Numbered from the whole stretch's first letter, positions 1 to 63,693 are shown. The stretch is DNA of 63,693 bases, filler included, from Psammoneis japonica (GCA_008632985.1; 3 parts of 3 records of this genome joined end to end with filler, not necessarily neighbours in it); one strand, 5' to 3'. The notes: generated from the sequence alone by a model not told the origin. Numbers and translations are program-made.

Positions 1-934
1 GTGAGGAAATGGAGCCAGAAGAAACAAGGCCTGCCCCTTGGCACACGAAGCCAAAGAAACAACAAGTGTCTTGGGGAGACGACAGAATCATTCGGTTCAA
101 CGATTTGTGCAAAGAGGTGACGAAAGACAGAGACTCAAAGGAGGGCAAGGAGTTTGAAAAGTGGCATGCGGAGATCAAGAAAAGCGAGTGCGAGAAGTCC
201 GGAGAAGCAAAGAAGAAGAAAAAGATGGCACCGACCGGCAATGCAGAGAAGGTGAAGGCAATGAACAGCCCAATGGTGGAGAGCAGCAGGGACGACAATG
301 GCAACGACGATGAGCAGGAGGAAGGCACAAAAGGCAAAACGAATGATGGAGGAGACGAGTCCGATGGAGACTTGTCCGATTGAGACGAGTCCAATGGCGA
401 CGAGTCCGATGATGATCATTGGCTTGGTTTGAGAGTGTTGCAGCAAGAAAATGTGTGCACAGTTGACACGGCACTCGGTCATTGCACTGCAGACGTAACA
501 AGGGATTGACTTGACCGATGAAATGCTTTTCTTGTTTAAAACAATGTTTGCAAAAATCAACAAACCAAGGTTTGTGCGGCAATGCAATCACGCATTGGCA
601 TGTGGCAACAAGGTGGAGGCAGAAATGGTGATGTGGATGTGGTGAAATTAGCGCACACAATTGTTGACAATTCATTGCAATGTTGGTGCACCAAACTTGC
701 AACCAGAGGTTGGCCTGACACCATGTGACAACAATGTTTTGCAATGTTTTGATGATTTGTCATCATGTGAGTCTGCCCCTTTTTACCATTTCATGCACTC
801 TGATGAGCAACACAGGCATCGAACACTGCAAGCCAGCAAGCAGGCAGAGAGGCTGTTGTTGGCAAAGAAAAATCACAGGTGTGGATGTCTTGCTTCATGG
901 GGGGATGTGGGGCACCTGCCGGCAGCTCGCAGGC

Positions 935-2052
935 ACGAAGACTGCTTTAAAAAACAAAAACATCTCACCAGATTGTGTCATCTGACTGTCCATTGCTCGC
1001 ACGACGTGAAAACTGCTTTAGAAAATGAAAACATCTCACAGGATTGTGTCATCTAACTGTCCATCGCTTGCGCATTTCACGTTGCGCAAGGTTTAGACGT
1101 GCGACGTGAAAACTGCTTTAGAAAATGAAAACATCTCACTGGATTGCGTCATCCAACTGTCCATCGCTCGCGCATTTCACGTTGCGCAAGGTTTAGATGC
1201 GCGACGTGAAAACTGCTTTAGAAAATGAAAACATCTCACTGGGTTGCGTCATCTGACTGTCCATCGCTTGTGCATTTGCACGTTGTGCAAGGTTTAGACA
1301 CGCGACGTGAAAACTGCTTTAGAAAATGAAAACATCTCACTGGATTGCGTCATTCAACTGTCCATCGCTCGTGCATTTCACGTTGCGCAAGGTTCAGATG
1401 CGCGACGTGAGAACTGCTTTAGAAAATGAAAACATCTCACTGGATTGCATCATCTGACTGTCCATCGCTCGTGCATTTCACGTTGCGCAAGGTTTAGACG
1501 CGCGACGTGAAAACTGCTTTAGAAAATGAAAACATCTCACCAGATTGCGTCATCTGACTGTCCATCGCTCATGCATTTCATGCTGCACAAGGCTTAGATG
1601 CGCGATGTGAAAACTGCTTTAGAAAATGAAAACATCTCACTGGATTGCGTCATTTGGCTGTCCATTGCTTGTGCATTTCACATTGCGCAAAGTTTGGACG
1701 CGCGACGTGAAAACTGCTTTAGAAAAATCTCACTAGATTGCGTCATCTGACTGTCCATCGCTCATGCATTTCACGTTGCGCAAGGTTTAGATGCGCGACG
1801 TGAAAACTGCTTGAGAAAATGAAAACATCTCACTAGATTGCGTCATCTGACTGTCCATCGCTCGTGCATTTGCACGTTGCGCAAGGTTTAGATGCGCGAT
1901 GTGAAAACTGCTTTAGAAAATGAAAACATCTCACCAGATTGCGTCATCTGACTGTCCATTGCTTGCGCATTTGCATGCTGAGCAAGGTTTAGATGCGCGA
2001 CGTGAAAACTGCTTTTAAAAAACAAAAACATCTCACTGGGTTGCATCATCTG
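935..2052. repeat. Tandem array, ~100-bp unit, ~10-11 copies
   Basis: Unit cgacgtgaaaactgctttagaaaatgaaaacatctcactggattgcgtcatctgactgtccatcgctcgtgcatttcacgttgcgcaaggtttagatgcg recurs at about 1002, 1102, 1202, 1303, 1403, 1503, 1603, 1703, 1796, 1896 and 1998. Confidence 0.95.
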
Positions 2053-2379
2053 AGCCTGTGGCAGGCAATCACCTTCAAATTCTATGACACGCAGGCCTCA
2101 GCGCTGTTGTGCGCACAGCTCAGTGGCAGGCACCCATGGTGCATGGGCCCTCCTGCTGGGAAATTCAGTGACGTCGTGACACATCTGTTCAACTTGCAAT
2201 GTTCGGAGATTCCCATAAAAAACCGACGGCATTCTGAGGAACGGACACGAGATTGTGCACGCACGCACGGCGCTGCAGAACACTGTAAATCGAGGATGCT
2301 GATTCCACCAGTGTGTGTGATGTGCTGTGCTGCACCCATGTTGTGCATGCGGCAGAGTGAATGATCACGCAAGACGAAC

Positions 2380-3240
2380 TTGAATTTTTTGCTGCTGCAG
2401 ACGGGACCAGCATTCATTGATGCAGATTGCGTCAGTTGCGTTCAGCGTTCAGCAACCAAACCAAAAGCCATGAAACACAAATCGGAGTTAGAGCGTCTTG
2501 CCCCATTCAACAAATCTGGAGTCGATGATCACACAGTGTTGTCCCTGAAAAACATGATGTCCGAGCGACAAACACGAGGACGCAAAACTCGATTGAATTG
2601 CGTGGAGTGGTTGTCTGCCAGCGGTGAAGACAAACATCCAAGCAAGCCAACCATTTTCATCCGTCAAGGCCCAGCACCGCGGTGGCACTCAACCGCTGCA
2701 TCCCACTTCCTCTGGCATTTTAAGATTGGAGGAGACAATTGGAAATCAAGCAAAGTTGCTGATTGGATTGCGGATGAAGGTGAGGTGGGTGATGGATGCT
2801 TTGCACCCCACCTGTGCGAGTGCTTCCTGAGTGAACATTTGCACAGCGACCGCAGGCCCAGCATCCTCCCATTGTTGTTGAGGGCCAAGGAAAATGCTGC
2901 AAGAAAAGCAATTGCCTTTGTCAACGTAAAGAAGGGGCAATGTGTCGCTCATTTCGACAGTGACAGCTCCCTCCTTGTTGTGCCAAAAGGCAAAAAGATG
3001 GCAAAGATTCTCAAACGGTCCATCAGCGAGTCCTGCAGCTCACAAAGGGGGTCTGAGCATCGCTCAAGGTTCGACTGCACAGACCCATGGAACTTGCCTC
3101 CAGGGAGACATGAGGGCGAGTGGGCCACAGCGGTGTTGGACGCAGGGAATGCATTGTTCATCCCCCAGCATTGTTTGCATGCAGCAAAGAGTGAAGATGG
3201 CACAGTTGCCATCTCCTTTCAAGTTGAGTTTGCTCCATGA
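2380..3240 (+). pseudogene. JmjC/cupin-like 2OG-Fe(II) oxygenase relic (TpA-mutated)
   Basis: HxD motif in 'AHFDSDSSLLVVPKGKK'. The distal His strand 'VLDAGNALFIPQHCLHAAKS...VAISF' fits the JmjC pattern L.PGD.LYIP..W.H.V.S. No Tyr in 286 aa. Confidence 0.65.
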
Positions 3241-5299
3241 GACAACAACCCAAGTGATTGATTTGGTTGCTTTCCAGTGTAGCTGAGCGTTCATTGTCAG
3301 CAGAGAAATTAAATTAAGAAACAAAATTGGCTCACTTTGGCATGGAGACGGCAGTGCAAAGCCACACCAAAATCTTGGGTTGGCCCTGCATGTGCCAGCT
3401 TTAGTTGACTTCCTGCTGCACTTGCACACATTGCCCCAGCCTCCACTCTAGGCCCTGCTCCAGCAGAGTGGTGGCCAGCTGGAGCAGCTGCTCCAGAGCC
3501 AGAGAGCAGCTAGAGTGGCTCTCTACTCTCTCAAGAGCAAGAGCACAGCACGGCAGTGGAGAGCAGCTGCTGCTGCTCTCTCAGCCACTCTCTGCTGCAG
3601 CACTGCGTAGGAGCAAGGCAGTCTCCCCTGGCTGCTGTGCCGGTGCCCGCAAGAAGAAATCCAGTGTGCGACGACAGCACACTGTGTTCTGTCCATCGTC
3701 AGACCGGAGCGAGACAGAAGTGACGCAGAGAGTCCAGGAGGCTGACACCGTGCCTTGACACCTTCGAACCTGGTGTCATGTCACGAGGCTCTCTGTCCAC
3801 TCACAACATGCCCACGTTGCAAGTGTCAAACATCAAAACGCCATCAAGCATCAACTGTGCCATGAGAATCAACTCATCTTCTGGCAGCGACAACGACAAC
3901 GCAGCGCATCTAGAATGTCGACTGAGAGGAGTGCAAACGCCAACATCCAAAGAGTGTCATGTTGGTGTCCATTCATCCAACAACAAGGGAGTGGTGTGCT
4001 GCAAGAGAACAATTGAAGCAACCACTGGTTTTCCCAGGGTTCCATCAGAGGACAGCATCGTGGATGATGAATTGAGTCCAGATGAACATCCACCTGACCC
4101 TGACCACCCGAGCCAACATTTCTCACATGAGAGCTCAGCCGACGCTCAAAGACATCAATTTCTGTCGGGGCCCATTTGTCAACGCATTGTCCATGAATGG
4201 GAAATGATGGGGCATGAAATCAAACTGCACAACAAAGTGCACGAAGAAATGCGCAAGCTGTTGGTTGGTGAACGGCGAAATCCAGCAGAGGTTGCCGTTT
4301 TAGATGAGGATGAAATGGAGGATGGATGCGGACACGCAGAAGAAGACATGCCAACATTTGCATGTCAGGCAATCCGCACCAAACAAGTTTGCTTTTCCGT
4401 GGATACATTGATCCGTGAAACTGCCCTTTGTCCGCACTTTCACGACAGTCATTTTCCCGAAATCAGCCCTGAAAAATGACTGCAATGCCAGTGCTGGTGT
4501 CACCGCTTGCTGCGCGCCGATTCCAAGCATGAAAGCCATCGGCTCAAGCATTGCAAGATGAGGAGGGATGCTCTAAACTTGCATTTGTAGGTGTGTTTTA
4601 CAGCAGCTCATTCTTTTGCAGTCAGCTTCAAAAACAAGCATCTGGTTTCATCAGCTGTTCCTTTGGTTGCGCCAGAATGTCGCAGGAAATGATGACCCTC
4701 CACTCTGGGCCTGGCAAATGAAAATGCAACCCCTTCCCCTGGATTTGACATCACAAATCCTGCGCACAGCTGGTTTCGTGTTGGGATGTTGTGGCAGCGA
4801 TGGTGGCTTTCCCAAGGCACTTTTTTCACTGTGCCCGGGATGGGCTTGGTTGACTAGAGCAACAGCCCTTGGGTTCACAACCTCGGCCATGGTGGCCATG
4901 GTGTGCCGGCACTGTTGGAGAGCAAGTGCGTGCCACCGACAGCTCGCTTTGTGCAGTTTTTGGCACAAAATCCACAACAACGGAAATGCAGTGTTCGCGG
5001 CCTCATTGGTCGGTGTTCTGAATGACGCAATCATGTGATGTGATTGGCTGTGAGGTGTGTCCAATCTCCATCTTTAATGCAGCAATGCACAACAATGATT
5101 GGAAACAAAAGCAGACGAGGTTCGCGGCCATCATGTGCTGCACAGGTGCATTCTGCACAAATGTCCACTGCTGCTCGTGAGTCGGTGTTCGGGAATGACG
5201 TCAATCGTGCGATGTGATTGGCTGGGAGGTGTGTCCCCTCCCATGCACACATTGGTGCCTGGAAACAAACATGTCAACAGGCTCTTGCACGGTGAAGGG

Positions 5300-7214
5300 A
5301 TGGTGCTCGCTCCATGGCGAGGTGCCACCGGCATTCAGACACCATTGTCTCAAAAAGCACAACAAGACAGAGTCATGCCCCCATTGGATTTCAAGATTGC
5401 GGATGGAAAAATGATGACTCAGGAGGTTGTTGGCTCTGTCCATGAACGGCATGGTTTGTCATCCAACGTCTTGTGCTTGGGCATGTCACACGCCTGTGTC
5501 AAGGAGCAATTGGCGGCCAGGGGTGTGTCGTGGTCTGCCATTGACATCAAGGAAGCCGGCTTGGAACAAACTGTGGAGCTGGTTTGTCGCAATGTGTTGA
5601 CAGAAATTGACGGTCGTGACTTGGCTCGGTGTCAGTCGATGGAGATCTTTGGGATGGAGGCTCGCAAGGTCTCTCTGGAAAGCGGAGCGTGCTGTGCCAA
5701 AAATCATTTGAGCGCAAATTTCAACAGAGTTTTCCTTTCTGAATAAGATCAACAAAAATTGGAGCAAGATGACTTTTCGGCAAATCATTCTGGACTGCTT
5801 TTGGATTCCTCAAGGGACTTCGGCCATGGCACACTGGCAGCGCTCATTCTTTCATGTGGCATTGCCAGGGTTTGTGCAGAGAGGGCTGTTGGAGTTTGCC
5901 TCGGCAACTCACGACAGCAATGGATTGGGAATTGGAAATGTCTGTCTGCCTTTTTGCTGTCATTGTGTCAAGCACATTGTCTCAGGTTTGAAGGTTCTTT
6001 CCAAGCACCACACGATTTTGTTTGCACGCAAATCAGAACTCGGAGAACATGCGCTCTGGGCTGGCACATCCAAGATTTGCCCAAACACCATGCAAGAAGT
6101 GCTCAGGAAGAAGTTGAGCCAGGAAGAAGTGCACTGCACATTTGCATCCAAAGATGTGAAGGGGGCCATTGAAGATGAGCATGTTGCAAAGGAGGAAGTC
6201 GTTCGTGTGCTAGAGTGTGTCGAAGACTTTGCCAATGTGAGAATGATTCGATTGAGGCCATTGCCGATTCACAGTGCAAAGCGCGGCAAGCAAAAGGTCT
6301 CAGGAAAGGTGTTTGGGATAAATGTTGGGGGATTTGAGGGTCTTAAACCGGCCAAAGAAGTCAAGCACGGGTGTCATGATGCCTGCAAATCAGACGAGTC
6401 ATTGACGGAGTCATTGACGGCTGCAACAGCTTCTCACAAGGTGTCTGATCAAGAATCTTTGGTTGGCGCATCTCCTGAGGTTTCTGATCAAGAATCTTGG
6501 ATCGACGTGTCCGATGAGAACTCTCCAAGTGGAGCGCATGGACCGCACGATAAATGCACTTCACCCAAAAAGGCGGGTCGACCTCCGAAGAAACGAAATG
6601 TTGCATTTTCGCCCATGAGGGGTTTCAAAACAACTTTGCCCTACTTTCCAGTGTGCATGATTCCATTGAAGGCATTGGCGATTCACAATCCAAAGCCCGG
6701 CAAGCACAAGGTGTCAGGCAAGGTGTTTGGGACAAATGTTGGGAGTTTTGAGGGTCTCAAGCCGGCCAAAGAAGTCAAGGACGCGTGCCATGATGCCAGC
6801 AAATCAGACAAGTCATTGACGGCTGCAACAGCTTCTCCTGAGGTGTCTGATCAAGAATCTTTGGTTGACACATCTCCTGAGGTTTCTGATCAAGAATCTT
6901 GGATCGGTGTGTCCAAATGCTCTGCACCCATCTCTGTTCGCATGTCTTTGGGTGATGACTGGCGCATGACGGAGGACAACATGACGAACATCACCACTCC
7001 CAGCATGCGGATCAGGGATGCCTTCAATGAGAACTGTCCAAGCGGAGCGCATGGGCCGCACAATGGATGCATTTCACCAAAAAAGGCAGGTCCACCTCAG
7101 GAGAAAAGAAGGGTTCCATTGTTGCCCATTCACAGTTTCAAAACAAATTTGGTCTGCCCTGGATGGCAAACCTGTCATGTGATCTGCAGCAGCAGCGGGA
7201 GTCGAAATGGCTGA
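5300..7214 (+). pseudogene. Decayed gene with possible Rossmann methyltransferase-like N-terminal domain and internally duplicated low-complexity C-terminus
   Basis: ORFs 5099-5746 and 5769-7214 join across a stop/frameshift. Motifs VLCLGMS, FRQIILD(C/Y)FW and GNV(C/Y)LPF. Segment ~6290-6620 is repeated at ~6710-7145. Confidence 0.35.
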
Positions 7215-7310
7215 AACTGTGGCACGTGATTGGCAAATTGGCAACAGCTTCATGATTCAGCAGGTGCTCTTTCTGTGTCAACTGCATGAGAAGCAATTGC
7301 GCGCATCTTC

Positions 7311-7413
7311 GTGCGATTTACACCGACGCAGAGAATGCTAAAAAAGTCTGATCACTCCCAAATTGGGAGCGATTAGATTTTTTTAGCTGTCTCTGCATCT
7401 GTGTAAATCGCAC
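7311..7413. repeat. 103-bp near-perfect palindrome (51-bp arms, 1-nt loop)
   Basis: Left arm 7311-7361 matches the reverse complement of 7363-7413 at 44 of 51 positions. Confidence 0.95.
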
Positions 7414-8329
7414 AAAACATGTGCCCTCATTCATGTGCACAGCACTGCTGCGGTGTGCAGACAGACTTTGCCACCAGCTACGTCACCTTTTGCCTGCCAC
7501 ATGCGTCATCCAGTCTGTTGAGATCTGTCAAAGCGAATCTACAAAATCTCATGTTCTTTGTGGCATGTTCAATGAACAGAAACCCCATGATTCCGTTGAT
7601 GCAGATTTTGCACCAGAACCCACACATTCGAGCGACTTCGACCGCAAATGTTGCTGTTCTCCTGCACAACAACAAAAAAAAAACAGCCATGGCAAGCGAA
7701 GACGAACATCCTGTGGTCACAATGGCCAAGGCTGTTAAAAGCAATTGCTTTCCGACTGAAGAGAAGCGCTGTCGCGACAAGTGGATCGAGTTCCTGTCAG
7801 AAGCCGGCCTTGCAGAACAATGCCTGTCTTGGTCCAATGGTTCCACGAAAAAAAAGAAAGGGTGCAGGTGCATGAAAAGAGCCTTCCATCCTGTGATCTC
7901 TCCTGAGAGCAACTCTCCAGGAGCCCCGCCCAAAAGTTTTTGGATTTGTTGTTTTCGAATGCTTCGGTGCTTTCTTCTGACAATGGAATGCTTTCAACAA
8001 TCGTCCCTCTGATCGAAAAGGGAAAACATGGTCTTTTTCTCAAAGCAAAACTGCTGGCACAAGCCGGCGTGTTCTCCTCAACAGGAAAAAACAACTGCAG
8101 CGCAAAGTGCATGTGGATTTGTCTCCCAGGCACCGAGGATGTCGTTGTTTGCCAAAATGCATTCTGCCACACATTCAACCTCAGAAGGTCATGGTGGCAA
8201 AAAAACAAGGGATTCGGCCATGGCTCAAGCTCCTGCAGCTTCTGCTGATGCCAGGGTTCTTGTTGCCGGGGCTCTTGCAGCTCCAACTCAAGCCAGCAAG
8301 CGGAGATGGTGGGAGGCAGTGACTCTCAT

Positions 8330-9600
8330 GACTCAAGCCCCTGCTCTGACCCCTGTTCCGACTCTAGCTGCTGTTCCTGAATTTACCACCAAAGCTTTTG
8401 CTTCCACCGGGGCGGAAGATGGAGTTGCAGCTGTGGCCCCGGCTCAAGCTCCCATGACTCAAGCACCTGCTCCAACTCCAGCCACTGTTGCTGAAGCTGC
8501 AACTGCAGCTGCTGCCACTGAAGCTGCTTTTACTTCTGCCGGAGCTGCTGCAGCTCCAAATGCAATGATGCAAGATGGAATTGCAGCTGCGGCCCCGGCT
8601 CAAGCTCCCACAACTCAAGCACCTGCTCCAACTCTAGCTGCTGTTGCTGAAGCTGCAACTGCAGCTGCTGCCACTGAAGCTGCCACCGACACTTTTACTT
8701 CCGCCGGAGCTGCCACAGCTCCAAATGCAATGATGGAAGATGGACTTGCAGCTGCGGCCCCGGCTCAAGCTCCCACAACTCAAGCACCTGCTCCAACTCT
8801 AGCTGCTGTTGCTGAAGCTGCAACTGACGGGCTCCAGTCCCAGGTGGGACTTTTTGTGACATTTGCCCCGTGGAATTCTGCGTGCAAGCTCTGTGGTTCG
8901 CACTCTGGCCAATGGACATGTTCATCTTCAACATAAAATGAACGGCCAAGTTTGCAGTGCATGTGTCTCTGTCCGCACTCGAAGTTTTGGACAATGCGCC
9001 TGCCCCACTCCATTCTTAAGACACTTGAGAATGGCGCAGAAGAAAAAACATTAAAAGTTGTTGAATGGATCGCCTGACAATTGCACCATAAAATGATGCA
9101 AAATTTCGCCAAAATCACATGGAAATGTACATGCGCGACACACGACGCGAATCAAAAAACTGTCGATGTCACAGTTCAGCAGTGCAAGGTCCCACCTAGA
9201 CCTGGAATGCGTCAACTGTGGCAACTGCCACTGAAGCTGCCACCGACGCTTTTGCTTCTGCCGGAGCCACCACAGCTCTAAATGCAACGACGGAAGATGG
9301 AATTGCAGCTGCAGCCCCGGCTCAAGCTCCCACAACTCAAGCTCCCACAACTCAAGCACCTGCTCCAACTCCAGCTGCTGTTGCTGAAGCTGCAACTGTG
9401 GCCACTGCCACCGAAGCTGCCACCGACACTTTTGCTTCTGCCGGAGCTGCCACAGCTCCAAACGCAACGACGGAAGATGGAATTGCAGCTGCGGCCCCGG
9501 CTCAAGCTCCCACAACTCAAGCCCCTGCTCCAACTCTAGCCACTGCCACTGAAGCTTTCACCAACGCTTTTGCTTCCGCCGGCCCGGCTGAAGCTCCTGC
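8330..9600 (+). repeat. Coding tandem repeats (Ala/Thr/Pro-rich), interrupted by MITE copy 1
   Basis: Repeated 'EDGIAAAAPAQAPTTQAPAPTLAAVAEAATAAAATEAA' units lie on both sides of the 8827-9212 insertion. Confidence 0.85.
8827..9212 (+). mobile_element. MITE-like non-autonomous DNA transposon, copy 1
   Basis: Imperfect TIRs ACGGG(C/T)TCCAGTCC..GGTGGGAC / GTCCCACCTAGACCTGGAA.GCGT. 6-bp TSD caactg at 8821-8826 and 9213-9218. Three other copies occur in the window. Confidence 0.9.
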
Positions 9601-10225
9601 AGCTTTTACAGATGCCGCTTCTGATCCACTGTGGAAAGCTCACAATCCTCAGCCTTGCTCTAAAATGGGTGGTGCGCCCATTCTTTTAGATGGAGTTAAG
9701 TGGGAAGAACTGGAGCAAAAAGGAGAGCTCCAACCCCTTCCATCACCTCCTCCAATGCTTGAATTGCAAATGCCAGCAAGCTGCAGCTGGACTTGTGATG
9801 CGACTCGTCACGTTGTGTGTGACAAATTTGGCTCCAAAGAACCGCNNNNNNNNNNNNNNNNNNNNNNNNNNNNNNNNNNNNNNNNNNNNNNNNNNNNNNN
9901 NNNNNNNNNNNNNNNNNNNNNNNNNNNNNNATCCCCTGTCAGTGGTGGAAACTTGGGATCGCAGGTTTGGGAAGGACGGAGTCCAAAGAAGATCAGTCGT
10001 TGCTCTGGTGGATCCTCCAAAATTCAGGAAAAAGTGAGAAAACGAAAGCGTTCACGACGATCAAAAAGTTGCAATGAGGTCACTGAGCTGCAAAAATTGT
10101 CACGGGAATGGACATGTCCGCGCTCTACAACAACGAATGTGACGGAAGACCTTTGGGTTGACCCTTCCTCTGTGGCTGCAGGAGCCTTTTCGAAAAGTCC
10201 AAGCAAGTGTTGATTGCCAAAGCGA

Positions 10226-10395
10226 GTTCTCACGGCAACCCAGGAAAATCAGGACGGGTCGTTGTCAGAGCACCAGTTGGCATTGACGGTCGAACCCTCT
10301 TTCATTGCTGGTTCTCACGGCAACCCAGGAAAATCAGGACGGGTCGTTGTCAGAGCACCAGTTGGCATTGACGGTCGAACCCTCTTTCATTGCTG
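10226..10395. repeat. Exact 85-bp tandem duplication
   Basis: 10226-10310 is identical to 10311-10395, and the duplication shifts the reading frame. Confidence 0.9.
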
Positions 10396-16790: not shown

Positions 16791-16857
16791 CAAAGCTCAA
16801 AGATTGATTTTGTCACTGCGACTCTACTCTCAACAGAACACCAAAGGCATCGCAAGA

Positions 16858-52448: not shown

Positions 52449-54342
52449 CTATTCGTCAACGAGAGTCTCAATGTCATCGAAAAGTTCCTCATTCGCGTCC
52501 CCAACAATGTGGACTTCACTGACCGACTCGTTTTCAACCTCATTAGGTTTCTGATGCATCTCGAGGTCCACGTGGTCCCCCGCTATGTGAGTTCCGCCCT
52601 CCTTTTCTCCAAGCTTTCCCCATTCCTCTGGTTCAAGTGGCCGGTCAGGATCACATGCCGTTTGCAATTCATAAATGCAATGTTCCAAGGCACGCAACGC
52701 TTTTCCCCATTCCAGTGCCGAAACGCTGCTCACTAGTAGCCCCGCAGGTCGGACAATGTCAATACACCGACCCAACGATAGTAAGGCTCCCTCCAAAACC
52801 ACATCAACCGTGGCGTCCGTCATGTTGTCGAAACAATTTTAATCCTGAACGAAAGGACGGGCTCGCATTGTACATTTCCTCCACGTGAGAAACCAGCGAT
52901 CGGCGAATGGACACCATGACTAGGTAGTTGTCTCGTTGAAAAAACTCAACCTGTTGCGAAAGAAAACGGCAATCAAAATGTCAAAGCAGTCCAGTATCTT
53001 TCAAGAGATAGCGTTACCTTCCAGGCCACAAGCTTACCTCGTTCACAACACCCTTCATGTTTACATATGATGGCCATAGTTCCTGACCCAAGAGGTAGCA
53101 GTTTCCAACGAACGCCTCCACATTGTCCTTGCTGTAGAAATAAGGATAAGTGGCATAGTGAAAGGTCCACGATGCGTCCACGATTGCATGAACACCTCTA
53201 TTCTTTTTCATAGAAACGCGCTTCCGGCTGCTGCGGCTGCTCTCGTAGTTGTCTCCATCCTCGTCATCTTCTCCGCGACATTCTTCTTGAAGCGCTTCTA
53301 TTGGTTGCAGCGACGATTGTCCCGGTGATCGGTGATGAATATCATTCAGATTGCACAAGTGGTACTCTGTTGAATAGAGCTGGACTTGAATGTTGACCTT
53401 TTGCTTCTTTTTCTCTTGATAATCTGCACCCAAAGCACTTTTCAGCCACGGGTTCAGTCGCTTGTGAATGCGTTCCTTGAGCTTGAGCAAGGTCTGCGCA
53501 TCATTTGCGCTGGTGCGATCCAAGACGATGCCTATATTGGATATATCAATACCCTGTGATTGACACAAGTGACGAAAGAATACATAGCCAGCGTCCGCAC
53601 TGCTTACATGATTGCCCTTGGCAATGCCGCCGGCAAAACATAGCAAGCATGGTTTGAGCTGCTTTCTTTCGTCCTTGTTATTATTACCAATCATGCTTTC
53701 CACGAGAGCTCGAATACGAGACGCATATTCCACAGAGATCAAGTCTCGAATGAGAGGTTTTCCAAAAACTACTGCTACACAAAACTTCTTTTCTGAGTTG
53801 TGCCGTTGTTGGATGCGATCATTGTACCCCAACAGAAAACTCATGGAGTCTTCCGCCGTCATGGCCATGCGTCCGTGATTAAACGATGTCGCACGTCGAT
53901 TCTTGGCATTTAAGCGCTGATCAATACTCTTTGTCAAGTCTCGCAACGAACCAAGGTGTTCATCTTGAATCAACGCCTTGTCTGTCTCCAACAAGAGGGG
54001 CTGACGATCTTTTTGTTGCAGAGCCTTGGCGCGAGCCGTGGCGCGAGCCAAGCGGGCACCTACGGCGGCTTGTGCTGTGGAAGTTGTGTTTTTATTAGCA
54101 GACATCTTTTTGCGCTTCCTTTTTGATCCGTTCTTGAGTTGCTGTGATGAGGTTGCCAGGCCGAGCCGAGTGTTGCGATTATTCTCCAGACTGTTCGGGC
54201 GATGATGATGCTGTGATAATCCTGAAGAATATCCATAAGCTCCTATTGATATACATAGCAGTATGAAAGCAACCATAACGTAGTACTGTCGATGACCCAT
54301 TGACAAGGCCCATTGTCTTGGCTGCCGCTCCGTCGGCATCAT
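52449..54342 (-). CDS. DUF218/YdcF-like protein with an N-terminal hydrophobic segment; exon 54342-53038, intron 53037-52951, exon 52950-52449 with one apparent frameshift near 52830
   Basis: 'VAVVFGKPL...YASRIRAL...LCFAGG...SSADAGYVF...IVLDRTSAN...LYSTEYHL' follows the DUF218 motif order. GAG|gtaagc donor and caacag| acceptor are both phase 0. Confidence 0.7.
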
Positions 54343-54518
54343 GGTTTGTTGTGCGGCTGTGCAGTGTGCAGTGTGCTGCGATGATCGTTGTGCGACGTTT
54401 GAATAAGGAAAATAAAATATTTTCAATTTTAATAAGCATTGACAATACGAGTTAAATGGCTTATTCATCTCAGGTACATGGTACATGGCAAGTCCTCAGA
54501 AATATCAACCGGAGGACA

Positions 54519-54912
54519 ATGGCGACGGACCTTGTGGAAGCGGTTCGATCCAAGGTACGTTACTACATTCCCACCAAATTCTTACCGAAAGAGTTTTGGA
54601 AGTGCTGGTATTCGTTCTTGCTGAAGTAGACGTGCTCATACAAGCTTTACTCACTGACACTGCGCCTCAATGTATGTTCTGCTGCAGTGTTTGGAAGAAT
54701 TTCAAGCGACGCATGTAGAATGCATTGACATTGGAGGAAGTTGTAGTGGTGGGGCCAAGTTGGAGCTCATTGTGGTTAGTGCTAAATTTGAAGGCATGCC
54801 ACTGTTAAAGAGACATCGTAGTGTCAATGCCGCACTCGCCGAGTACATGGATCAAATTCATGCTCTCACAATCAAGGCATGGACACCTGCGCAATACCAA
54901 AACAAGCAATGA
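54519..54912 (+). CDS. bolA: BolA-like protein; exons 54519-54554 and 54688-54912
   Basis: Spliced product MATDLVEAVRSK|CLEEFQATHVECIDIGGSCSGGAKLELIVVSAKFEGMPLLKRHRSVNAALAEYMDQIHALTIKAWTP carries the BolA signature (VVS..F.G..L..RHR.V...L....IHAL). Confidence 0.92.
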
Positions 54913-56697
54913 AAACTTGCGTAACACAAGAGCCACTGATTGCACCAGTTTGTGTAATGGCAAACTACTTCTAGAGAGTCGTGTAAAGTAAAACGAGCTG
55001 CTGCTCTCTCCCTGGTTGGTACGGCACCACAAAATTCATCGCGCCGGGGAATCCGGCCAAACCATTGGCCATAGTCATTCCTTTTTTTTTAAGACTATCC
55101 GACTGCCCTCTTCAGGCTTTCCCCGTCCTTTCCTAGTTTCGAGCATGTATCCTATTGCTCTGGGTCCTGTCTCCATCAGTCACTGCAAATGTCCATCGGC
55201 CCAACCGACGTTACCAATGACTCCATTTGCTCAAGTAAATTTCTCGTTCCAGCAAATGTCTTCTCCTGCCTTGCAGCAAACCCCAGGGCAGCCTGGCATT
55301 AGACTCGGGGCATGTCTGCTTCCCTCGGCAAAAAGGCAATCGTAGCCGCTCCCACCTTTTCGCAAGACTTTTCACCTGTGCAGCAGAGATGGGACTCCCC
55401 GTTGACAAACTCATCTTCAGGTCGGGATCTCTGCTGGTCACACACTTTGTTACAGGCATTGCAATGGTCTGGCTCGCATGGATCATCATTGCGTGCTGGA
55501 GACTTTTGCCACAGGGTTGGCTGATTTTGGTGTTCTGTTGGAAGACATCAACACAACTGTTCTTTCCCAACATTTTGAGCACATGCCGCTTTCCTTCAGG
55601 GTGTTGCCTGAACCATCACTCACTGAACAGCATGCATCCATTGTCAGCCCATCGTCTCCAAAGGTGACTTCTTTGCAAGTGTTCCTGTTCTTGCACTTCA
55701 AGTGTTCTTGTGTTGTTCTAGATTTGTGGCAAGCAGAATCTCCAGGCTTCTTGCAACAAACACCTTTTCAGGGCAGCAGCTTGGTTTGAGACTCAGAGCA
55801 CAACTTCTTTCCTTGGCAACAAAGGCAATTGCAGCTGCTGGTGCATCCAACTTTCCCAGCTTTTTGCAAGAAGGGTTTTTGCCTGTGCAAGCATCAATCC
55901 TGTGTTGCTCACCACCCACAAATCAATTGTTGGACAGGATCTCTGCTGCTGATTGCAGTGGTCTGTGTCATGATGCAGAAAGTGATGTGCATGAGTGAGA
56001 CATGGCAGAGGGTGAGCTGGCTTGACTGATGGGAATCTGGTTGGAGGCAGGTTGTAGAAATGGGGGAAAAGGCATTTGCTTGCAGAGAGCAGGCAAGAAA
56101 AGGGGGGTCATTGGCAACAGACCCTCCACAAGCCTGGCAGTCAGGTGCCTTTTTGTTGACTTGAAATTGGGGGCTCAGCCGGGCCTGGCATTGGTGTGGA
56201 AGTTGGCGATGGACTTGGAACTCCAGTCAGCTTGGCAGTAAAAAAAAAGTGACCATGCCATCATCTCACCACTGCCCACGTCAACACTGACTGCAGCAGA
56301 CCCACATTCCCCAGCACCCAAACAAAGGTGGCAGGGAGGACAATTCAAAGACTGTTGTGACACATTGTTGCATGACAATGCCCATCACACCCAGCAATTT
56401 CAAGTCAAAATGGTGCCCAACTGGGTGCTGTCAGATGGCAAATGGAGTTGCTGTGCTTCAAAAAATGGACAAGAATCCTGACCACACCACATGGTGGGAG
56501 CCACAAAAAAAAACACTGCAGAAAAACCAAAGATGTGGCTGTCTCCAGAGATAGTGCACAGAAGGAATGAGAAAAAACTTCCTGGGATGAACATCCNNNN
56601 NNNNNNNNNNNNNNNNNNNNNNNNNNNNNNNNNNNNNNNNTTAATTAATTAANNNNNNNNNNNNNNNNNNNNNNNNNNNNNNNNNNNNNNNNNNNNA

Positions 56698-57085
56698 GCA
56701 GAAGGTTCCCATCCAAGGGATGGTGTCAGTTCCAGCCGGGGGAGGTTCTCCATGTCCTCCTGAGTCAGCTCGTGTGAGTCAAAGACCAAAGCAACACCTT
56801 GCACGCGCAAATGCACCCTGATTTTCAAGTCAAGGAAAACAACAGAGTGCGCGCTGTTGGGATCAAACTGGCGAGGGGTGTCGTGGACAGTCAGCTCACT
56901 TGCTCACAGTTGGCTGGGGCACAGCAGGGTGTCAGTCATTCTTTCCCTGAAAAACACAGCCTCGTGGGCTGGCAGTGGGCGTGGCTGTCCATTGGCTGGA
57001 TCAACCCACATGGCAGCAGCCACGCAAATGGGGACATTCCTCATTGGCGCACACTCTTCGGAGCAAGGATGCACTGCAGCCCGAG
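56698..57085 (-). mobile_element. Copia protease-region fragment (same family as 60480-62843)
   Basis: Colinear with 60725-61100; 'WVDPANGQPRPLPAHEAVFFRERMTDTLLCPSQL'. Confidence 0.85.
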
Positions 57086-58548
57086 ACTTCAGGCAGTGTT
57101 GAAGAGAACGGGCACGCAGGCAGCGCATGGTGCTGAAACCAGAAGAGGAGAAGGTGGCTGGAAATGATCTCTTTCCACAGGTGAAGTTTCTCAGCCCGTC
57201 AGAATTGGCAAGCAATGGGAGCGTCTCAATGTTTGTCAAGAAACAGATTGCTGGTGGCAACATGGACACTTCAAATTGGTCAGGAACTTGGGAGGAATGG
57301 GCAAAAAAGGTGGCAAAAAGGCAAGTTGACAATCTCAGAAACANNNNNNNNNNNNNNNNNNNNNNNNNNNNNNNNNNNNNNNNNNNNNNNNNNNNNNNNN
57401 NNNNNNNNNNNNNNNNNNNNNNNNNNNNNNNNNNNNNNNNNNNNNNNNNNNNNNNNNNNNNNNNNNNNNNNNNNNNNNNNNNNNNNNNNNNNNNNNNNNN
57501 NNNNNNNNNNNNNNNNNNNNNNNNNNNNNNNNNNNNNNNNNNNNNNNNNNNNNNNNNNNNNNNNNNNNNNNNNNNNNNNNNNNNNNNNNNNNNNNNNNNN
57601 NNNNNNNNNNNNNNNNNNNNNNNNNNNNNNNNNNNNNNNNNNNNNNNNNNNNNNNNNNNNNNNNNNNNNNNNNNNNNNNNNNNNNNNNNNNNNNNNNNNN
57701 NNNNNNNNNNNNNNNNNNNNNNNNNNNNNNNNNNNNNNNNNNNNNNNNNNNNNNNNNNNNNNNNNNNNNNNNNNNNNNNNNNNNNNNNNNNNNNNNNNNN
57801 NNNNNNNNNNNNNNNNNNNNNNNNNNNNNNNNNNNNNNNNNNNNNNNNNNNNNNNNNNNNNNNNNNNNNNNNNNNNNNNNNNNNNNNNNNNNNNNNNNNN
57901 NNNNNNNNNNNNNNNNNNNNNNNNNNNNNNNNNNNNNNNNNNNNNNNNNNNNNNNNNNNNNNNNNNNNNNNNNNNNNNNNNNNNNNNNNNNNNNNNNNNN
58001 NNNNNNNNNNNNNNNNNNNNNNNNNNNNNNNNNNNNNNNNNNNNNNNNNNNNNNNNNNNNNNNNNNNNNNNNNNNNNNNNNNNNNNNNNNNNNNNNNNNN
58101 NNNNNNNNNNNNNNNNNNNNNNNNNNNNNNNNNNNNNNNNNNNNNNNNNNNNNNNNNNNNNNNNNNNNNNNNNNNNNNNNNNNNNNNNNNNNNNNNNNNN
58201 NNNNNNNNNNNNNNNNNNNNNNNNNNNNNNNNNNNNNNNNNNNNNNNNNNNNNNNNNNNNNNNNNNNNNNNNNNNNNNNNNNNNNNNNNNNNNNNNNNNN
58301 NNNNNNNNNNNNCTGAGAAAGAAAAGGAGGCTTGGATTTGAGGCCGATTCAAGCCAGCGACCTCAGGAAGCGCAAAGACTCACAACCACTCAGAACACTG
58401 CACACTGTCCTGGCGAGTGCAGGAGGTTCTCAACAACCCAAGAGGCAAAGAAGTCGCCACTCAGCCAGCTGTTGAGCCCCTTCTCCGCACACACATTCAG
58501 GCATGTGTTGTGCACAGCATCATCACACAGCATTTGTCCAACTGAGCA

Positions 58549-59600
58549 TGTCCTTTCAAGGAAAACAAGCATGTTTTCCTTGAAAAGACATGTTTGTTTT
58601 CCTTAAAAAGACATGTTTGTTTTCATTGAAAAGACATGTTTGTTTTCCTTGAAACCACATGTTCGTTTTCCTTGAAACAACACGTTTGTTTTCCTTGAAA
58701 AGACACATTTTTTTTCCTTGAAACAACACGTTTGTTTTCCTTGAAAAGACATGTTTGTTTTCCTTGAAACGACATGTTTGTTTTCCTTGAAAAGACGTGT
58801 TTGTTTTCCCTGAAAAGACACATTTGTTTTCCTTGAAAACACATGTTTGTTTTCCTTGAAACAACGTGCTTGTTTTCCTTGAAAAGACATGTTTGTTTTC
58901 CTTAAAAAGACATGTTTGTTTTCAAGACATGTTTGTTTTCCTTGAAACCACATGCTTGTTTTCCTTGAAACGACGTGTTTGTTTTCCTTGAAAAGACATG
59001 TTTGTTTTCCTTGAAATGACGTGTTTGGACGTGTTCCAGCTCTGGGTGGGACCTCGCACTGCTGAACTGTGACACAATTGTTTTTTGTCATCCGTCGCAT
59101 GTTTCGCACGCACATTTCCACGTGTTCCATTATAAAAAATTGTTCCACACTGCCTGTTTTGCGAAGCCAAAGGCTTTCTGTTATCTGCACTTGTGTCAAT
59201 GAAAATGCACTGGGCATGTTCTTTAATGTCTAAAGAATGTGCCCGGGCACACTGTAAAGAATGTGCTTCAAGTGTGGAGGAGGAGATGCGTTCGCAAAAT
59301 TGCCTCTTTTTCTGTTGGCGATCATTCATGCATGCATTGCTTGACAATTTTACTGCGGAGCTCGCACGTAGAATTCCACGGGCCCAATGTCACAAAAAGT
59401 CCCACCTGGGACTGGAACCTGTCTTTGTTTGTCTTGAAAAGACACGCTTGTTTTCTTTGGAACAACATGTTTGTTTTCTTTGAAACGACGTGTTTGTTTT
59501 CCTTTAAAAGACACGCTTGTTTTCCTTGAAAGAACATGTTTGTTTTCCTTGAATTGACATTTTTGTTGAAATGACACGTTTGTCTTTCTTAAAACAACAT
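58549..59600. repeat. 23-bp satellite (gtttgttttccttgaaaagacat)n, split by MITE copy 4
   Basis: About 20 units before and 7 units after 59029-59422. Confidence 0.95.
59029..59422 (-). mobile_element. MITE copy 4 (inverted, more diverged internally)
   Basis: Both ends are the reverse complement of copies 1-3; the TSD is degenerate (gtttgg/ctttgt). Confidence 0.85.
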
Positions 59601-60261
59601 GAGTTTGCCTTGAATTCTGCGCAAGAACGCACTGACGGAAGCAAACCAACACGATTCCATGTGCAGGAGAACAGCATCTGCACCCCACAAGAAGCTCACG
59701 CCTGTCCCCAAGTTCAGTTGGATCCATGAGACTGCAATGTGCAGCAATTTGTGGGGTTGATCCTCTCCCAGATGAAAATGTGTGACACCTCTGGAATGCT
59801 TGAGCAGCACCCGCAATTGAGCAACTCCTTTTTTGATGTCTGGTGGTCAAAACCTGCCACCGCCAAGAGCTTGCGGGCCACACAAGATGAGCTAATTTGT
59901 GTTTCAGCTGCGCCCACATTTGACAATGTGACCCACGCTGCTCTCTGTTCAGCGGCGAGCAACTGTTTGGTGAGAAAGGTCCAGCCAGGGAGAACATTGG
60001 GTCATCAAGGAGAGATGACGTGCACGGCAGCATCTCCATGGTTCCACATGATCATGTCAACAAGATCAAAGGAAAAGAGCTGTTGCTCTTGTGTCAGAGT
60101 TTCTTCAACTGAGTCCTCTGGGTGCCAATTGGAGCCAAGCATTGTCTGAGGGTTTTGTGCGGAGCACAAGCTGAGAGTTGAGTGCCAGAGCGGGACTTGA
60201 GCCTGTCTGCAAGTTTTGGCGGTGCTGCTCCATGCCTGCTTTTGCTTGGTTTGAGGTGGGG

Positions 60262-60480
60262 TGTTTGTTTTCCTTGAAAAGACACGTTTGTTTTCCTTGA
60301 AATGACACGCTTGTTTTCCCTGAAACGATGTGTTTGTTTTCTTTGAAATGACATGTTTGTTTCAATTGAAAACACATGTTTGTTTTCCTTGAAATGACAT
60401 GTTTGTTTTCCTTGAAAAGACATTTTTTTCCCCTTGAAACGACATGTTTGTTTTCCTTGAAAAGACATGTTTGTTTTCAC
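60262..60480. repeat. 23-bp satellite block
   Basis: Same unit as 58549-59600; abuts the truncated Copia integrase. Confidence 0.92.
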
Positions 60481-62843
60481 CAATCAAAGAGAGAGAGGGA
60501 AGAGATGTCGGGTGTTGAACCTGTCACCTCCTCTTCTGGGACTCGTCCTCCCATGTCTGACACACTGGTTGCAATCATGCGTCGGATGTCACATGCCCAT
60601 TTGGCGCTGTGGGACCAAAGTCGTCTGTGAGCGCCAGTCCAGTGCAGAGTCACACGGACTCTTTTCTTCAACTCACGAATGGATGCCTCGGCCAGGTTCT
60701 GCCAGGGGCTGCATGGAGTGGACACCAGCAGAAGGCTCCCATCTTGGGGGTGATGTGAGTTCCAGCCGGGGGAGGTTCTCCAGATCCTCATTTGTTGGCT
60801 CGTGTGAATCAAAGACAGAAGCAGCACCTCTTGTTTGCAGTGGCACCCTGATCTTCAAGTCAGGGAAAGCAATGGAGTGCGCGCCATTCGGATCAAACTG
60901 GCAAGGGGTGTCGTGGACAATCAGCCCATTTGCTCGCAGTTGGTTGGGGCACAGAAGGGTGTTGGTCATCTTGTCCCCAAAAAACATGGCGTCGTGGACT
61001 GGCAGCAAGCACGGTTGTCCATCAGTTGGATCAACCCACACGGCAGCAGCCGTGCAAACAGGAGTGTTTTCCATTGGCACATGCTCTTCGGAGTGGGGGT
61101 GCACCACGACAGTTCTGTCGATGTCAGAGCACATCACAAAATTGGACCCAACAGCACACGTGTCAGCGTGCAAGTCTAAATCAGTGGTGGCTTCGTCATC
61201 TGAATTTCCAGCAGATGACAAAGAGACACGCACATCCTTTGAGAATCACCCAGACAAACAAACAGTGCCAGCAGGTTTAGCGACATTTGGTTCTGTGCCT
61301 TTCAGTGCTGGCGCAACTGTTCATTCCTCATTCTGAGGTTTCTCATGTGCGCTGCATCCAAACTGGGTGCCTGCATTGGCGGCAGGTTCACCAGGCTCGT
61401 CAGAGTCTTTCGGTGCATCAGCAGGTTGAGCAGCAGGCTCGGCAACAGCCGCTTTCTTTACAGCGAGAGTTTCGGCATCGACCGACTCAGCTTCCAAGGA
61501 CACAGCAGCAGCTTTGCATTTCTTTTTGGCCTTCTTGGCATCGCGGAGCTTTTGGACTTGCTCTCGCTCGGGACCGTCAAGAGCACTCCGGTCGGAGATG
61601 CCCTTCAGAAAGTCAGAGACCTTCTTGGTCTCGGCCACCAGTTCATCAAGCTCAGACAAGTCGTTGTGAGCCTTTTGATGACGCTGAATGTGCTGGTCAA
61701 ATGCAAATCGACCCCGTCCGGTGCACTTCGCGGCAGCAATCTGTGCATGAGCACGGTTCTTTTGGGTGGTGGCGGCGGCTGATCCTTCTGCCTGCCTCTC
61801 AAGTGCAAAGAAAGCAGTGCGACCATTGCGGCTGCGATTGGAAGGTTTGACAAAAGCCCATCCGGGCCCCCCCATTGCTGACTTCTTCAGGAGATCATGC
61901 AGTTGTTGCCTGTCCTGCGCATGCTGAGCGCCCACAAGGCGGGTGGCAGCAATGAGGTCCTCGTCAATGGCAGCGCAGGTGGCAGCCAACATCTCGGCAG
62001 TGACTTCCTCATGTTCCCCAGCTGGACAGATGAGGGGAACTCCGGCGACGGTGCTGCGGTGGTGGCGCAGTTCGGTCTCCAGCAACTCTTGGAAGGTGGG
62101 CCAGTTGTGTGGGTTCTTTGGCTCCACCGCCGTTTTGGCAGCCAATTCGTCGTCCGAGTCGGCGGACTTGAATTGCTCCAGTTCCTTCAGACGTGCCGCC
62201 CATGTTCCAACAACGTCGCCAGCGAAGAGAGCAGCGGATCAACCCCACAAATTGCTGCATGCTGAGCGCCCGCAAGGCGGGTGGCAGCAATGAGGTCCTC
62301 GTCAATGGCAGCGCAGGTGGCAGCCAACATCTCGGCGGTGACTTCCTCATGTTCCCCAGCTGGACAGATGAGGGGAACTCCGGCGACGGTGCTGCGGTGG
62401 CGGCGCAGTTCGGTCTCCAGCAACTCTTGGAAGGTGGGCCAGTTGTGTGGGTTCTTGAGCTCCACGGCCGTTTTGGCAGCCAATTCGTCGTCCGAGTCAG
62501 CGGACTTGAATTGCTCCAGTTCCATTGGGCGTGCCGCCCATGTTCCAACAACATCGCCAGCGAAGAGAGCAGCAGCCGGCTGTTGGTTCTGGGCTCTGTC
62601 GCAGTCAATCCATGCATGCAGTGCCTTGAGCTTTCGATTTGCCAGGTGTGGAAAGCGGACTTGAGGGCTGGCAGCAGCACCCACGCTTTTCATGGTGCCC
62701 TTCGTCATGTCGGCAATTTCAGTCAAAGGGACCTGCTCCAGGTCCTCGACAGCAGTGAAGCCTTGACGGGCCGTGTGGGTGCGCGTCTGTGCACTGTGCC
62801 CACAACGCGCAAGACAGGCGGCAAAGGCTGCAGCAGCGGCCAT
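60480..62843 (-). mobile_element. Second Ty1/Copia (CoDi-like) relic: gag, protease and integrase C-terminus, with internal deletions and a gag duplication
   Basis: gag 'GGPGWAFVKP...FDQ(H)IQRHQKA(H)NDL..L.E.VAETKKVSDFLKGISD'; protease 'LDLHADTC'; integrase 'P(C)SPWQNLAEASIRELK...TGSTPDIS..FDW'. Segment 61919-62235 is duplicated at 62257-62573. Confidence 0.92.
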
Positions 62844-63564
62844 GGCACATCAGCAGTTGTTCGTGTTTCGATGCGTGAGCGTCCACTTGTGTGAGTGGAG
62901 GAAAGTGAGAAAAATGCATGGCTCTCATGCCGATTTGGCGGTTTCTGCTTGGCGAACCCATGAGCAGGCGGTGTTGCCCCAAGCAACAATGTCCAACAGA
63001 CATGCATTCACATGTGCAGCATCCAAACAATTTGATGATGCACTTTGATTGATGAGATGTGTGCGGTCAAATGACAGACAGCGCACAAAATCATTGCATT
63101 GTCTTTGTCACAAATGTTTGCATGTCTCAGCCGACATGTTCCATCCACATGATCTGACATTTTGTGTGATGATGTCATGTCTGACGGATCACAGCTCTGG
63201 TCTCCAAGAGCATGTTGTTCATGTCCATGAATGTTGACACACACAAAGGACTCAGCAATTGCGCGAGCAACCATGGGACCAACATGGCGCTTGCCACAAA
63301 AATCAATTGATCGCAACGATGCCGTCACACCGTTTGCAATGCCCATTCCAGGCGATGAACATCACAGCGCACTGGCTCTGACAAAGTGACAAAATGCCAC
63401 CATGATGGCTGAGAATTGGGTGCAAGACAAGACAGAGTGTTGAGCAGCATCAGCGGGTTCTAGAATTGTGAGATGTTGCGCCATTGGGGCCGCTGATCAA
63501 GCAACAGTGAACCAATCACCAACAGCACACAAACTGCCTGTGTTTGTGACAGCACATCAGCATT

Positions 63565-63693
63565 TGTTCAAAACAACATGTTTGTTTTCCTTGAAACAAC
63601 ATGTTTGTTTTTCAATGAAAAGACACGTTTGTTTTCCTTGAAAAGACACATTTGTTTTCCTTGAAATGACATGTTTGTTTTCCTTGAAACGAC
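63565..63693. repeat. 23-bp satellite block, running off the window end
   Basis: Same unit as 58549-59600. Confidence 0.9.

Follow-up and report, generated by a model that had tools for sequence, protein, structure and literature searches.

The stretch of DNA analysed here, a window of 63,693 nucleotides, consists of long blocks almost devoid of the dinucleotide TpA, separated by short gene islands. We suggest that a DNA-level process in silenced, transposon-rich chromatin domains of a diatom very likely turns TpA into TpG or CpA in place. Read from the sequence, the change runs from A:T to G:C, is restricted to TpA, strikes both strands, takes place after duplication or integration of the affected DNA and prefers the target 5'-TAY-3' (Y, pyrimidine; R, purine). 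The process would run until almost no TpA is left, and genes 200-400 nt past the border of a domain would be spared.

TpA-depleted blocks and gene islands

The whole 63.7-kb window holds 625 TpA, an overall observed/expected ratio (o/e, with the expectation taken from base composition) of 0.16, and these are spread very unevenly. In sliding 1-kb windows, TpA o/e is 0.00-0.27 over approximately 1-28450, 31700-43700, 46800-51200 and 55400-63693; the three islands that separate these depleted blocks show 0.36-0.69. The layout is as follows.

1..28450: TpA-depleted block 1, open at the left end of the window
28551..31400: gene island 1; TpA is at an ordinary level (o/e 0.4-0.65), CpG o/e about 1
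31700..43700: TpA-depleted block 2, in which 28 TpA remain, CpG o/e 0.16-0.46
43900..46740: gene island 2, containing the CCB1 gene
46800..51200: TpA-depleted block 3, in which 11 TpA remain, CpG o/e 0.05-0.3
51480..55220: gene island 3, containing the open reading frame (ORF) 53017-54495 (minus strand)
55400..63693: TpA-depleted block 4, open at the right end of the window, with runs of N at 56597-56696 and 57344-58312

Pooled, the four blocks (52,004 nt without N) contain 236 TpA where 3,201.8 are expected (o/e 0.07), whereas the three islands (8,902 nt) contain 360 against an expected 637.9 (o/e 0.56). At the islands' own o/e, approximately 1,807 TpA would be expected in the blocks (Poisson P ~0). 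The blocks are rich in TG and CA (o/e 1.67 and 1.64, vs 1.23 and 1.25 in the islands). A first-pass annotation of the window had described TpA-poor, TG/CA-rich blocks beside ordinary islands, and its coordinates agree with ours to within a few hundred bases. CpG o/e is 0.50 in the blocks and 1.00 in the islands, with values of 0.05-0.46 over blocks 2-4. The sub-block 22500-28450 is saturated, with 4 TpA remaining, yet its CpG o/e is 0.7-0.9. Other dinucleotides are near-equal between blocks and islands (ApA 1.24 vs 1.21, TpC 1.03 vs 1.09, ApT 0.88 vs 0.94), and G+C is about 4 points higher in the blocks. The borders are abrupt; the number of TpA per 200 nt rises from 0-1 to 5-12 across one or two bins (200-400 nt).

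Direction of the change

The direction of the change was read from degraded retroelements in blocks 2 and 4 and from a RusA-like ORF in block 1.

36901..41926, plus strand: degraded Ty1/Copia-type retroelement, located by tblastn with intact polyproteins; protease-like part 37988-38368, integrase 39228-39920, reverse transcriptase (RT) 40662-41500, RNase H 41477-41926
60480..61179, minus strand: second Copia fragment (protease and part of the integrase)
21200..21763, plus strand: RusA-like ORF (PF05866, E 5e-10)

The RT of the first element is partly missing. Intact homologous polyproteins carry RVT_2 preceded by an integrase-like part, which is the Ty1/Copia order. A Pfam scan of the window, covering 271 stop-to-stop ORFs of at least 90 amino acids (aa), found no RT, integrase or RNase H at E<=0.01, RVT_2 appearing only at E 0.022, and a search for longer homologous proteins with the window's RNase H ORF gave no match. 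The integrase ORF at 39429-39887 matches 626 representatives at E<=1e-3, and 146 of the 150 best have ordinary tyrosine contents (median Tyr 3.65%; Cys 1.4%; His 3.4%). Changes were polarised against 142 of 150 homologues, the 8 with Tyr below 2% being dropped to avoid copies that are themselves mutated. A column was taken as conserved when it held at least 5 homologues and at least 60% of them agreed.

None of the 24 conserved Tyr columns holds Tyr in the window; the residues found there are Cys (11), His (7), Phe (3), Trp (1), Pro (1) and a stop (1). Conserved columns for other residues are retained in 313 of 455 cases (Fisher P 3e-12), for example Phe in 13/16, Trp in 10/11, Asn in 13/14, Leu in 41/52, Cys in 2/2 and His in 7/10. 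Intact Copia relatives thus encode Tyr rather than Cys or His at these places, which disposes of the possibility that Cys and His are simply the residues of the family. The peptide strings from which the first-pass annotation had read its direction of change are present as KTCI (41029-41040), CHPE (41116-41127), ACHH (41768-41779) and, on the minus strand in the second fragment, PCSPWQN (60696-60716). The KTCI, HHA, RCS, GCL and ACH positions are columns with Tyr in at least 60% of the intact homologues.

At the codon level, 166 of 479 conserved columns differ. After 62 had been dropped as ambiguous or not derivable in a single step, 104 changes were classified.

A:T to G:C at TpA: A>G 18, T>C 14
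A:T to G:C elsewhere: A>G 4, T>C 0
Changes at CpG: G>A 33, C>T 9
Remainder: other transitions 5, transversions 21

The excess at TpA is therefore strong, with 32 of the 36 polarised A:T>G:C changes at TpA and 4 elsewhere, and the two strands contribute about equally on the Copia sense strand. This bears out the earlier claim of A:T>G:C change at TpA on either strand. It also agrees with the earlier view that neither repeat-induced point mutation (RIP) nor deamination of 5-methylcytosine (5mC) can explain the loss of TpA, as the change runs the opposite way. In the RusA-like ORF, compared with the 52%-identical protein P0271, 1 of 5 Tyr is kept and the others are His, His, Cys and Leu.

CpG decay is seen in the Copia remnants. 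Arg is kept in 12 of 37 columns, and the replacements include His (9), Gln (5), stop (2) and Trp (2). The decay is lopsided on the sense strand of 36901-41926 (G>A 33 vs C>T 9), also within Arg CGN codons alone (His and Gln 14 vs stop and Trp 4), and this asymmetry agrees with the skew over 36001-42000, where CA (826) exceeds TG (613). Possible causes are a strand bias in 5mC deamination or repair or, in part, a detection bias due to codon structure.

Sequence context of surviving TpA

The 236 TpA that survive in the blocks are found in a distinct set of contexts. Relative to the islands, the over-represented tetranucleotides are TTAA (4.8-fold), CTAA/TTAG (3.3-fold) and CTAG (3.2-fold). At the other extreme, no ATAT is left (30 in the islands), and GTAC and ATAC/GTAT are reduced to 0.05 and 0.11. 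Counted on either strand, the frequency of trinucleotides in blocks relative to islands is 0.03 for TAT, 0.06 for TAC, 0.19 for TAG and 0.21 for TAA. TGA is not raised in the blocks although TAA is reduced. Survival by context class was computed without the satellite at 900-2100, that is for 213 TpA in blocks and 359 in islands.

YTAR: blocks 116, islands 58, survival 0.35
Mixed context: blocks 93, islands 201, survival 0.08
RTAY: blocks 4, islands 100, survival 0.007

RTAY is nearly gone and YTAR persists, which points to a 5'-TAY-3' target with the two strands hit independently. An independent-strand model in which the rate at TAY is 4.7 times that at TAR predicts a survival of 0.05 for the mixed class, against the 0.08 seen. 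The products lean the same way; YTGY plus RCAR outnumber YCAY plus RTGR 1.37-fold in the blocks, compared with 1.15-fold in the islands (Fisher P 0.02), the direction predicted for TAY. Tyr columns preceded by a pyrimidine became Cys in 5 cases and His in 2, and those preceded by a purine became Cys in 6 and His in 5; this split too lies in the TAY-predicted direction, in a sample too small to count. The context data imply that the target would be 5'-TAY-3' for an agent acting on A and, equally, 5'-RTA-3' for an agent acting on T.

Paralogous copies and the rate of change

Eight non-redundant paralogue pairs were picked from 141 self-matches of the window, tandem and overlapping matches being dropped. 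They include a direct pair of 1.2 kb.

15423..16621, plus strand: copy A, 91.6% identical to copy B
18860..20049, plus strand: copy B, differing from copy A mainly by CA/TG doublets

Among the 190 single mismatches in the eight pairs only 13 are TA/TG or TA/CA, since TpA is absent from both copies. Adjacent double mismatches are dominated by CA/TG (52 of 96), and the next commonest type occurs 5 times. A CA/TG doublet can derive from an ancestral CpG or from an ancestral TpA. In the 1.2-kb pair, 25 CpG are intact in both copies and 26 in one, from which 3.4 CA/TG doublets are predicted; 23 are seen. The excess over the CpG prediction indicates that about 20 ancestral TpA ended up as TG in one member of the pair and as CA in its partner. 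Opposite outcomes at the same ancestral TpA imply that mutation took place after the copies had separated, in place.

Assuming that both outcomes are equally frequent (50:50), we estimate approximately 48 ancestral TpA in this pair and 1.86 hits per site per copy, compared with 0.0117 for the background and 0.42 for CpG. The rate at TpA would then be about 160 times the background and about 4.5 times that at CpG, a rough and indirect estimate from one paralogue pair.

The same signature in metagenomic Copia loci

Searching metagenome contigs with the integrase alignment yielded 139 confirmed relatives; 80 of them were retained for analysis of composition. Four of these 80 Copia loci (L012, L061, L014 and L010) combine a TpA o/e of 0.08-0.20 with TG/CA values of 1.51-1.77, and L007 is half-depleted (TpA o/e 0.38). 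The five loci have no nucleotide similarity to the window and lie on contigs from other projects. RTAY makes up 5 of their 119 surviving TpA, vs 5,248 of 17,380 across the remaining 74 loci (P 1e-12); L066 (TpA o/e 0.41) was excluded from both sets.

The same collection serves as a control for CpG decay. Many Copia loci with a CpG o/e of 0.02-0.15 have TpA o/e values of 0.7-0.95, among them L053, L077, L029, L022, L024 and L052 (TpA o/e 0.76-0.95). It follows that methylation-driven CpG decay does not entail loss of TpA. On this compositional evidence, the CpG decay that co-occurs in the window's blocks is a separate process, which also feeds TG and CA but cannot remove TpA. The hosts of the CpG-poor, TpA-normal loci (including L011) appear to methylate their transposons heavily, without the TpA process.

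The remaining 4 of the 150 best integrase representatives, from metagenome contigs, contain less than 1% Tyr and 3.6-5.5% Cys. These Tyr-poor integrases carry His or Cys at the Tyr positions of the family, for example in the INVYGM stretch. Tyr-poor, Cys/His-rich 'integrases' of this kind (P0148, P0171, P0208 and P0262) are present in public protein catalogues; the same hypermutation probably produced them, and its products were then called as genes.

Host and authenticity of the sequence

At E<=1e-5, the 493-aa ORF of island 3 (53017-54495, minus strand) matches 129 relatives, 120 of which are listed; identities are only 30-44%, too low for the species to be represented in that collection. 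Among the matches listed, all 8 fully named relatives are from diatoms, and two were checked as Bacillariophyta. From their genera we take the eight to be diatoms: Fragilaria crotonensis, Cyclotella cryptica, Skeletonema marinoi, Stephanodiscus triporus, Cyclostephanos tholiformis, Thalassiosira sp., Cylindrotheca fusiformis and Attheya sp. An Atlas look-up of the gene-island ORF gave DUF218 leads only, at 0.87 and so below the 0.9 line, and no placement. Island 2 holds a second host gene.

44201..45363 (exons within), plus strand: CCB1 gene (PF12046, E 5e-20)

The presence of CCB1, a cytochrome b6f assembly factor, fits a photosynthetic host. Contigs from the public run X2 skip 87-158 nt with GT..AG ends over this gene and are read as spliced transcripts; they bridge its three introns. 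By these relationships the window's host genes are diatom-like, and the host is not the rhizarian Bigelowiella natans, in which a similar process has been reported (see below).

Contigs from a second public run, X1, cover 40500-47500, and 16 of 27 pieces are at least 99% identical to the window and reproduce its TG/CA calls. Inside the depleted Copia element, one piece of 1,053 nt has 5 differences and one of 1,610 nt has 2. The TG/CA alleles are thus present in contigs of a public run, and this agreement excludes a scaffolding or polishing artefact only. Among the runs listed for 40500-47500, none was an RNA data set. Within the blocks, the differences between X1 and the window include one TG/TA site, two TG-vs-CA doublets and three CpG/TpG sites. 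The TA/TG difference at 40800 and the CA/TG differences at 41433-41434 and 47414-47415 lie 86-255 nt from contig ends. The differences between X1 and the window could be independently mutated alleles or paralogues, and we do not count them as ongoing activity.

Other contents of the blocks

Block 1 holds several further features.

925..2053: satellite of approximately 100-nt units
10287..11729, plus strand: ORF with a GAGCG string at 10395..10409
12060..13295, minus strand: leucine-rich-repeat (LRR) ORFs (LRR_14, E 5.6e-14 and 4.3e-10), inside depleted DNA

Weak Pfam matches to JmjC and ARM are also found in block 1. The first-pass annotation had called the pattern repeat-restricted, a description that our data do not support: the blocks also contain the LRR, RusA-like and weak JmjC/ARM sequences, and a 132-nt repeat common to islands 1 and 2 retains its TpA (3 and 2, respectively). 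The pattern looks domain-restricted rather than homology-triggered.

The GAGCG string had been read as a degenerate SET motif. The string is present, but the SET identity was not confirmed, as Pfam gave no match at E<=10 and the Atlas no usable one. In the region of the satellite (900-2100), 23 TpA are listed, 22 in YTAR (TTAG, CTAG, TTAA, CTAA) and one in another context (2083, CTAT). The satellite has a high CpG o/e (0.9-1.3) and two TpA per unit, as though context-protected sites alone persist.

The RusA-like ORF places a RusA-type Holliday-junction resolvase ORF in a mutated block of diatom nuclear DNA; it may be of host, organellar, viral or bacterial origin. Its sole relative found is P0271, a protein of 114 aa from assembled contigs. 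As to block 1 being an integrated virus, scans of viral contigs with the RusA-like and GAGCG ORFs gave no relative.

TAA and TAG are gone from the depleted blocks, leaving TGA as the sole remaining stop, and ORFs are open in several frames simultaneously. There are 51 ORFs of at least 200 aa in depleted DNA, often overlapping on both strands, and ORF length is uninformative there. A pattern of 44 N, 12 bases and 44 N occurs twice, at 28451-28550, exactly at the border of block 1, and at 56597-56696.

Mechanism

The agent could be a polynucleotide adenine deaminase (ADAT2/TadA-like or of another deaminase fold) recruited to heterochromatin, and would produce inosine, which pairs with C. A DNA adenine deaminase is the agent that we tentatively favour over modification of thymine. 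The tRNA substrate of TadA is U-A-C, which fits the TAY preference. We infer that the process inactivates mobile or foreign DNA, and that it is in this sense a genome defence.

Several points weigh against this account. The enzyme, the targeting signal and the role in defence are all inferred from sequence. TAT is no less affected than TAC, unlike the U-A-C of TadA, and to our knowledge the substrates of eukaryotic ADAT2/3 need no pyrimidine after the A. The test of product direction is only modestly significant (P 0.02), and both it and the survival values assume that the ancestral composition of the blocks was that of the gene islands. The argument for change after duplication assumes 50:50 outcomes and a correct alignment in a repeat-rich pair. 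It should also be noted that X1 comes from the only public study with the stretch and may be the assembly's own sample, so that it is not fully independent.

Modification of thymine is an unlikely route, but it accommodates the context data in full. A TET/JBP-type dioxygenase would mark the T of 5'-RTA-3' in silenced DNA, giving 5-hydroxymethyluracil (5hmU) or further oxidised or glucosylated forms, and T would then change to C by mispairing or faulty repair, which is indistinguishable in outcome and context from deamination of adenine on the opposite strand. As TpA is palindromic, all context data suit RTA as well as TAY. A further step would be required, given that 5hmU forms a normal pair with A and has only a weak mutagenic effect. 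In dinoflagellates, 5hmU takes the place of T with a preference for TA and TC, lies mostly on repeats with 5mC and silences transposons (PMC11572971). Diatoms, chlorarachniophytes and dinoflagellates all belong to the Sar clade (two of the three were checked by taxonomy). Unlike the TA and TC preference of 5hmU, TpC is not depleted here.

Among untargeted causes, we considered repair synthesis by Pol eta at WA (W, A or T), GC-biased gene conversion and selection against heterochromatic TpA, and find them highly improbable. Pol eta does yield A>G at WA, and had been named as a candidate in the first-pass annotation; WA includes ApA, though, which is unchanged in the blocks, ApT is barely lowered, and A>G changes with a 5' A number 1 against 18 with a 5' T, all of which speak against it. 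The higher G+C of the blocks would be in favour of untargeted causes. Gene conversion lacks dinucleotide specificity. Selection cannot account for dead copies in which TG and CA arose independently.

Editing before integration, in which an ADAR- or APOBEC-like analogue edits the RNA or cDNA of a retroelement before the damaged copies insert, is barely credible and is largely refuted by the paralogues. Retroelements are among the targets, and ADAR prefers U before the edited A. However, the strands are about equally hit (18 vs 14), paralogous copies differ in outcome at the same ancestral site, and satellite, LRR, RusA-like and inter-element DNA is equally depleted. TAG, with the 3' G that ADAR prefers, survives best together with TAA.

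We give as little credence to an artefact, either a modified heterochromatin base that is systematically misread or a mis-polished assembly: the runs that contain the stretch come from a single study and possibly from the source sample, but the X1 contigs reproduce the calls, the elements also bear frameshifts, TGA stops and CpG decay, the same signature and context rule occur in dissimilar metagenome contigs of other projects, and Tyr-poor integrases are found in public protein catalogues (4 of 150 representatives).

Comparison with known systems

RIP, known from Neurospora and other Pezizomycotina, changes C to T, mainly CpA to TpA, and so creates TpA. It depends on duplication, is premeiotic and acts via RID/DIM-2. 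Like RIP, the process described here makes local, saturating, dinucleotide-specific transitions that kill mobile DNA in place and spare neighbouring genes; unlike RIP, it destroys TpA, and the direction is opposite. The loss of CpG in the same blocks is that expected of 5mC deamination, which cannot remove TpA. TadA, ADAT2 and the DNA base editors derived from them convert A to inosine, which is read as A>G, like the change seen here. We know of no established natural, chromatin-targeted DNA activity of the TadA/ADAT2 type.

The nearest precedent is found in B. natans. The first-pass annotation knew of no description of such a system in diatoms; this still stands in the literature searched, but a system of the kind has now been described in B. 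natans. In mutation-accumulation lines of B. natans, Mettrop et al. (2026) found that 231 of 302 nuclear mutations fell within integrated nucleocytoplasmic large DNA virus (NCLDV) and virophage sequences, and 230 of these 231 de novo mutations changed A to G or T to C, always at TpA (bioRxiv 10.64898/2026.01.13.699255). The rate was approximately 6e-7 per site per generation, in some lines only; the affected DNA forms TpA-poor, CpA- and TpG-rich clusters, and an ADAT2-like deaminase is proposed (bioRxiv 10.64898/2026.01.13.699255). That text makes no mention of diatom, CpG, context or trinucleotide (bioRxiv 10.64898/2026.01.13.699255).

The two systems agree in several respects. In both, A:T>G:C change is restricted to TpA and gives TpG or CpA according to strand. 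Both affect discrete stretches, here four sharp-bordered blocks with Copia remnants inside blocks 2 and 4, and there stretches of foreign origin. Low TpA goes with high CpA and TpG, here at o/e of 0.07 for TpA, 1.67 for TG and 1.64 for CA. TpA-poor coding sequences of B. natans are enriched in RT and DDE domains, and retroelements are targeted here too.

There are differences as well. The host is a stramenopile (diatom) here and a rhizarian there. The targets here are LTR retroelements, satellites and embedded gene-like DNA, whereas there they are viruses. Depletion is near-saturated here (o/e 0.00-0.1 over approximately 80% of the window), against a Rho of 0.45 in the NCLDV region and 124 clusters of at least 3 kb genome-wide in B. 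natans. Strong CpG decay accompanies the loss of TpA here, and the text of the B. natans preprint does not mention CpG. Finally, the rate was measured directly in the B. natans lines and is estimated here from one paralogue pair.

Dinoflagellate 5hmU is similar in that it occurs in the Sar lineage and on TpA of repeats, alongside 5mC; in the text available it is a modification, not a reported mutation, and it also targets TpC, which is undepleted here (PMC11572971). A search of the literature on diatom transposons, TpA and hypermutation returned the B. natans preprint and papers on fungal RIP, and none on diatoms. A search on DNA adenine deaminases and genome defence yielded base-editor papers only. 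In the accessible text of Maumus et al. 2009 on diatom retrotransposons (PMC2806351), dinucleotide, hypermut, RIP, deamination and point mutation are not mentioned.

Implications

By its signature, the process matches the type found in B. natans and would widen its range, with a diatom as host, retroelements among the targets, near-saturation in extent and a target of three bases. More speculatively, diatoms and chlorarachniophytes might have in common an enzyme system, guided by chromatin, whose deamination of adenine in nuclear 5'-TAY-3' erases mobile and viral DNA.

There are practical consequences. In DNA without TAA and TAG stops and without Tyr codons, gene finders call long false ORFs, Pfam misses transposon domains in TpA-erased DNA, and Tyr-poor pseudo-proteins are already in public catalogues. 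Diatoms are ecologically dominant algae with transformable model species, and a diatom case beside that of the chlorarachniophyte would make the question of the enzyme and its targeting testable.

If a dedicated enzyme is responsible, it would act as a natural editor of adenine in DNA, aimed at a defined target of three bases, and would extend the principle of genome defence beyond fungi and animals, by way of A:T>G:C editing of DNA. If the shared system is real, eukaryotes would have a natural DNA adenine editor of their own, the mirror image of RIP, which could have arisen early in the Sar clade and could act in vegetative growth to this day.

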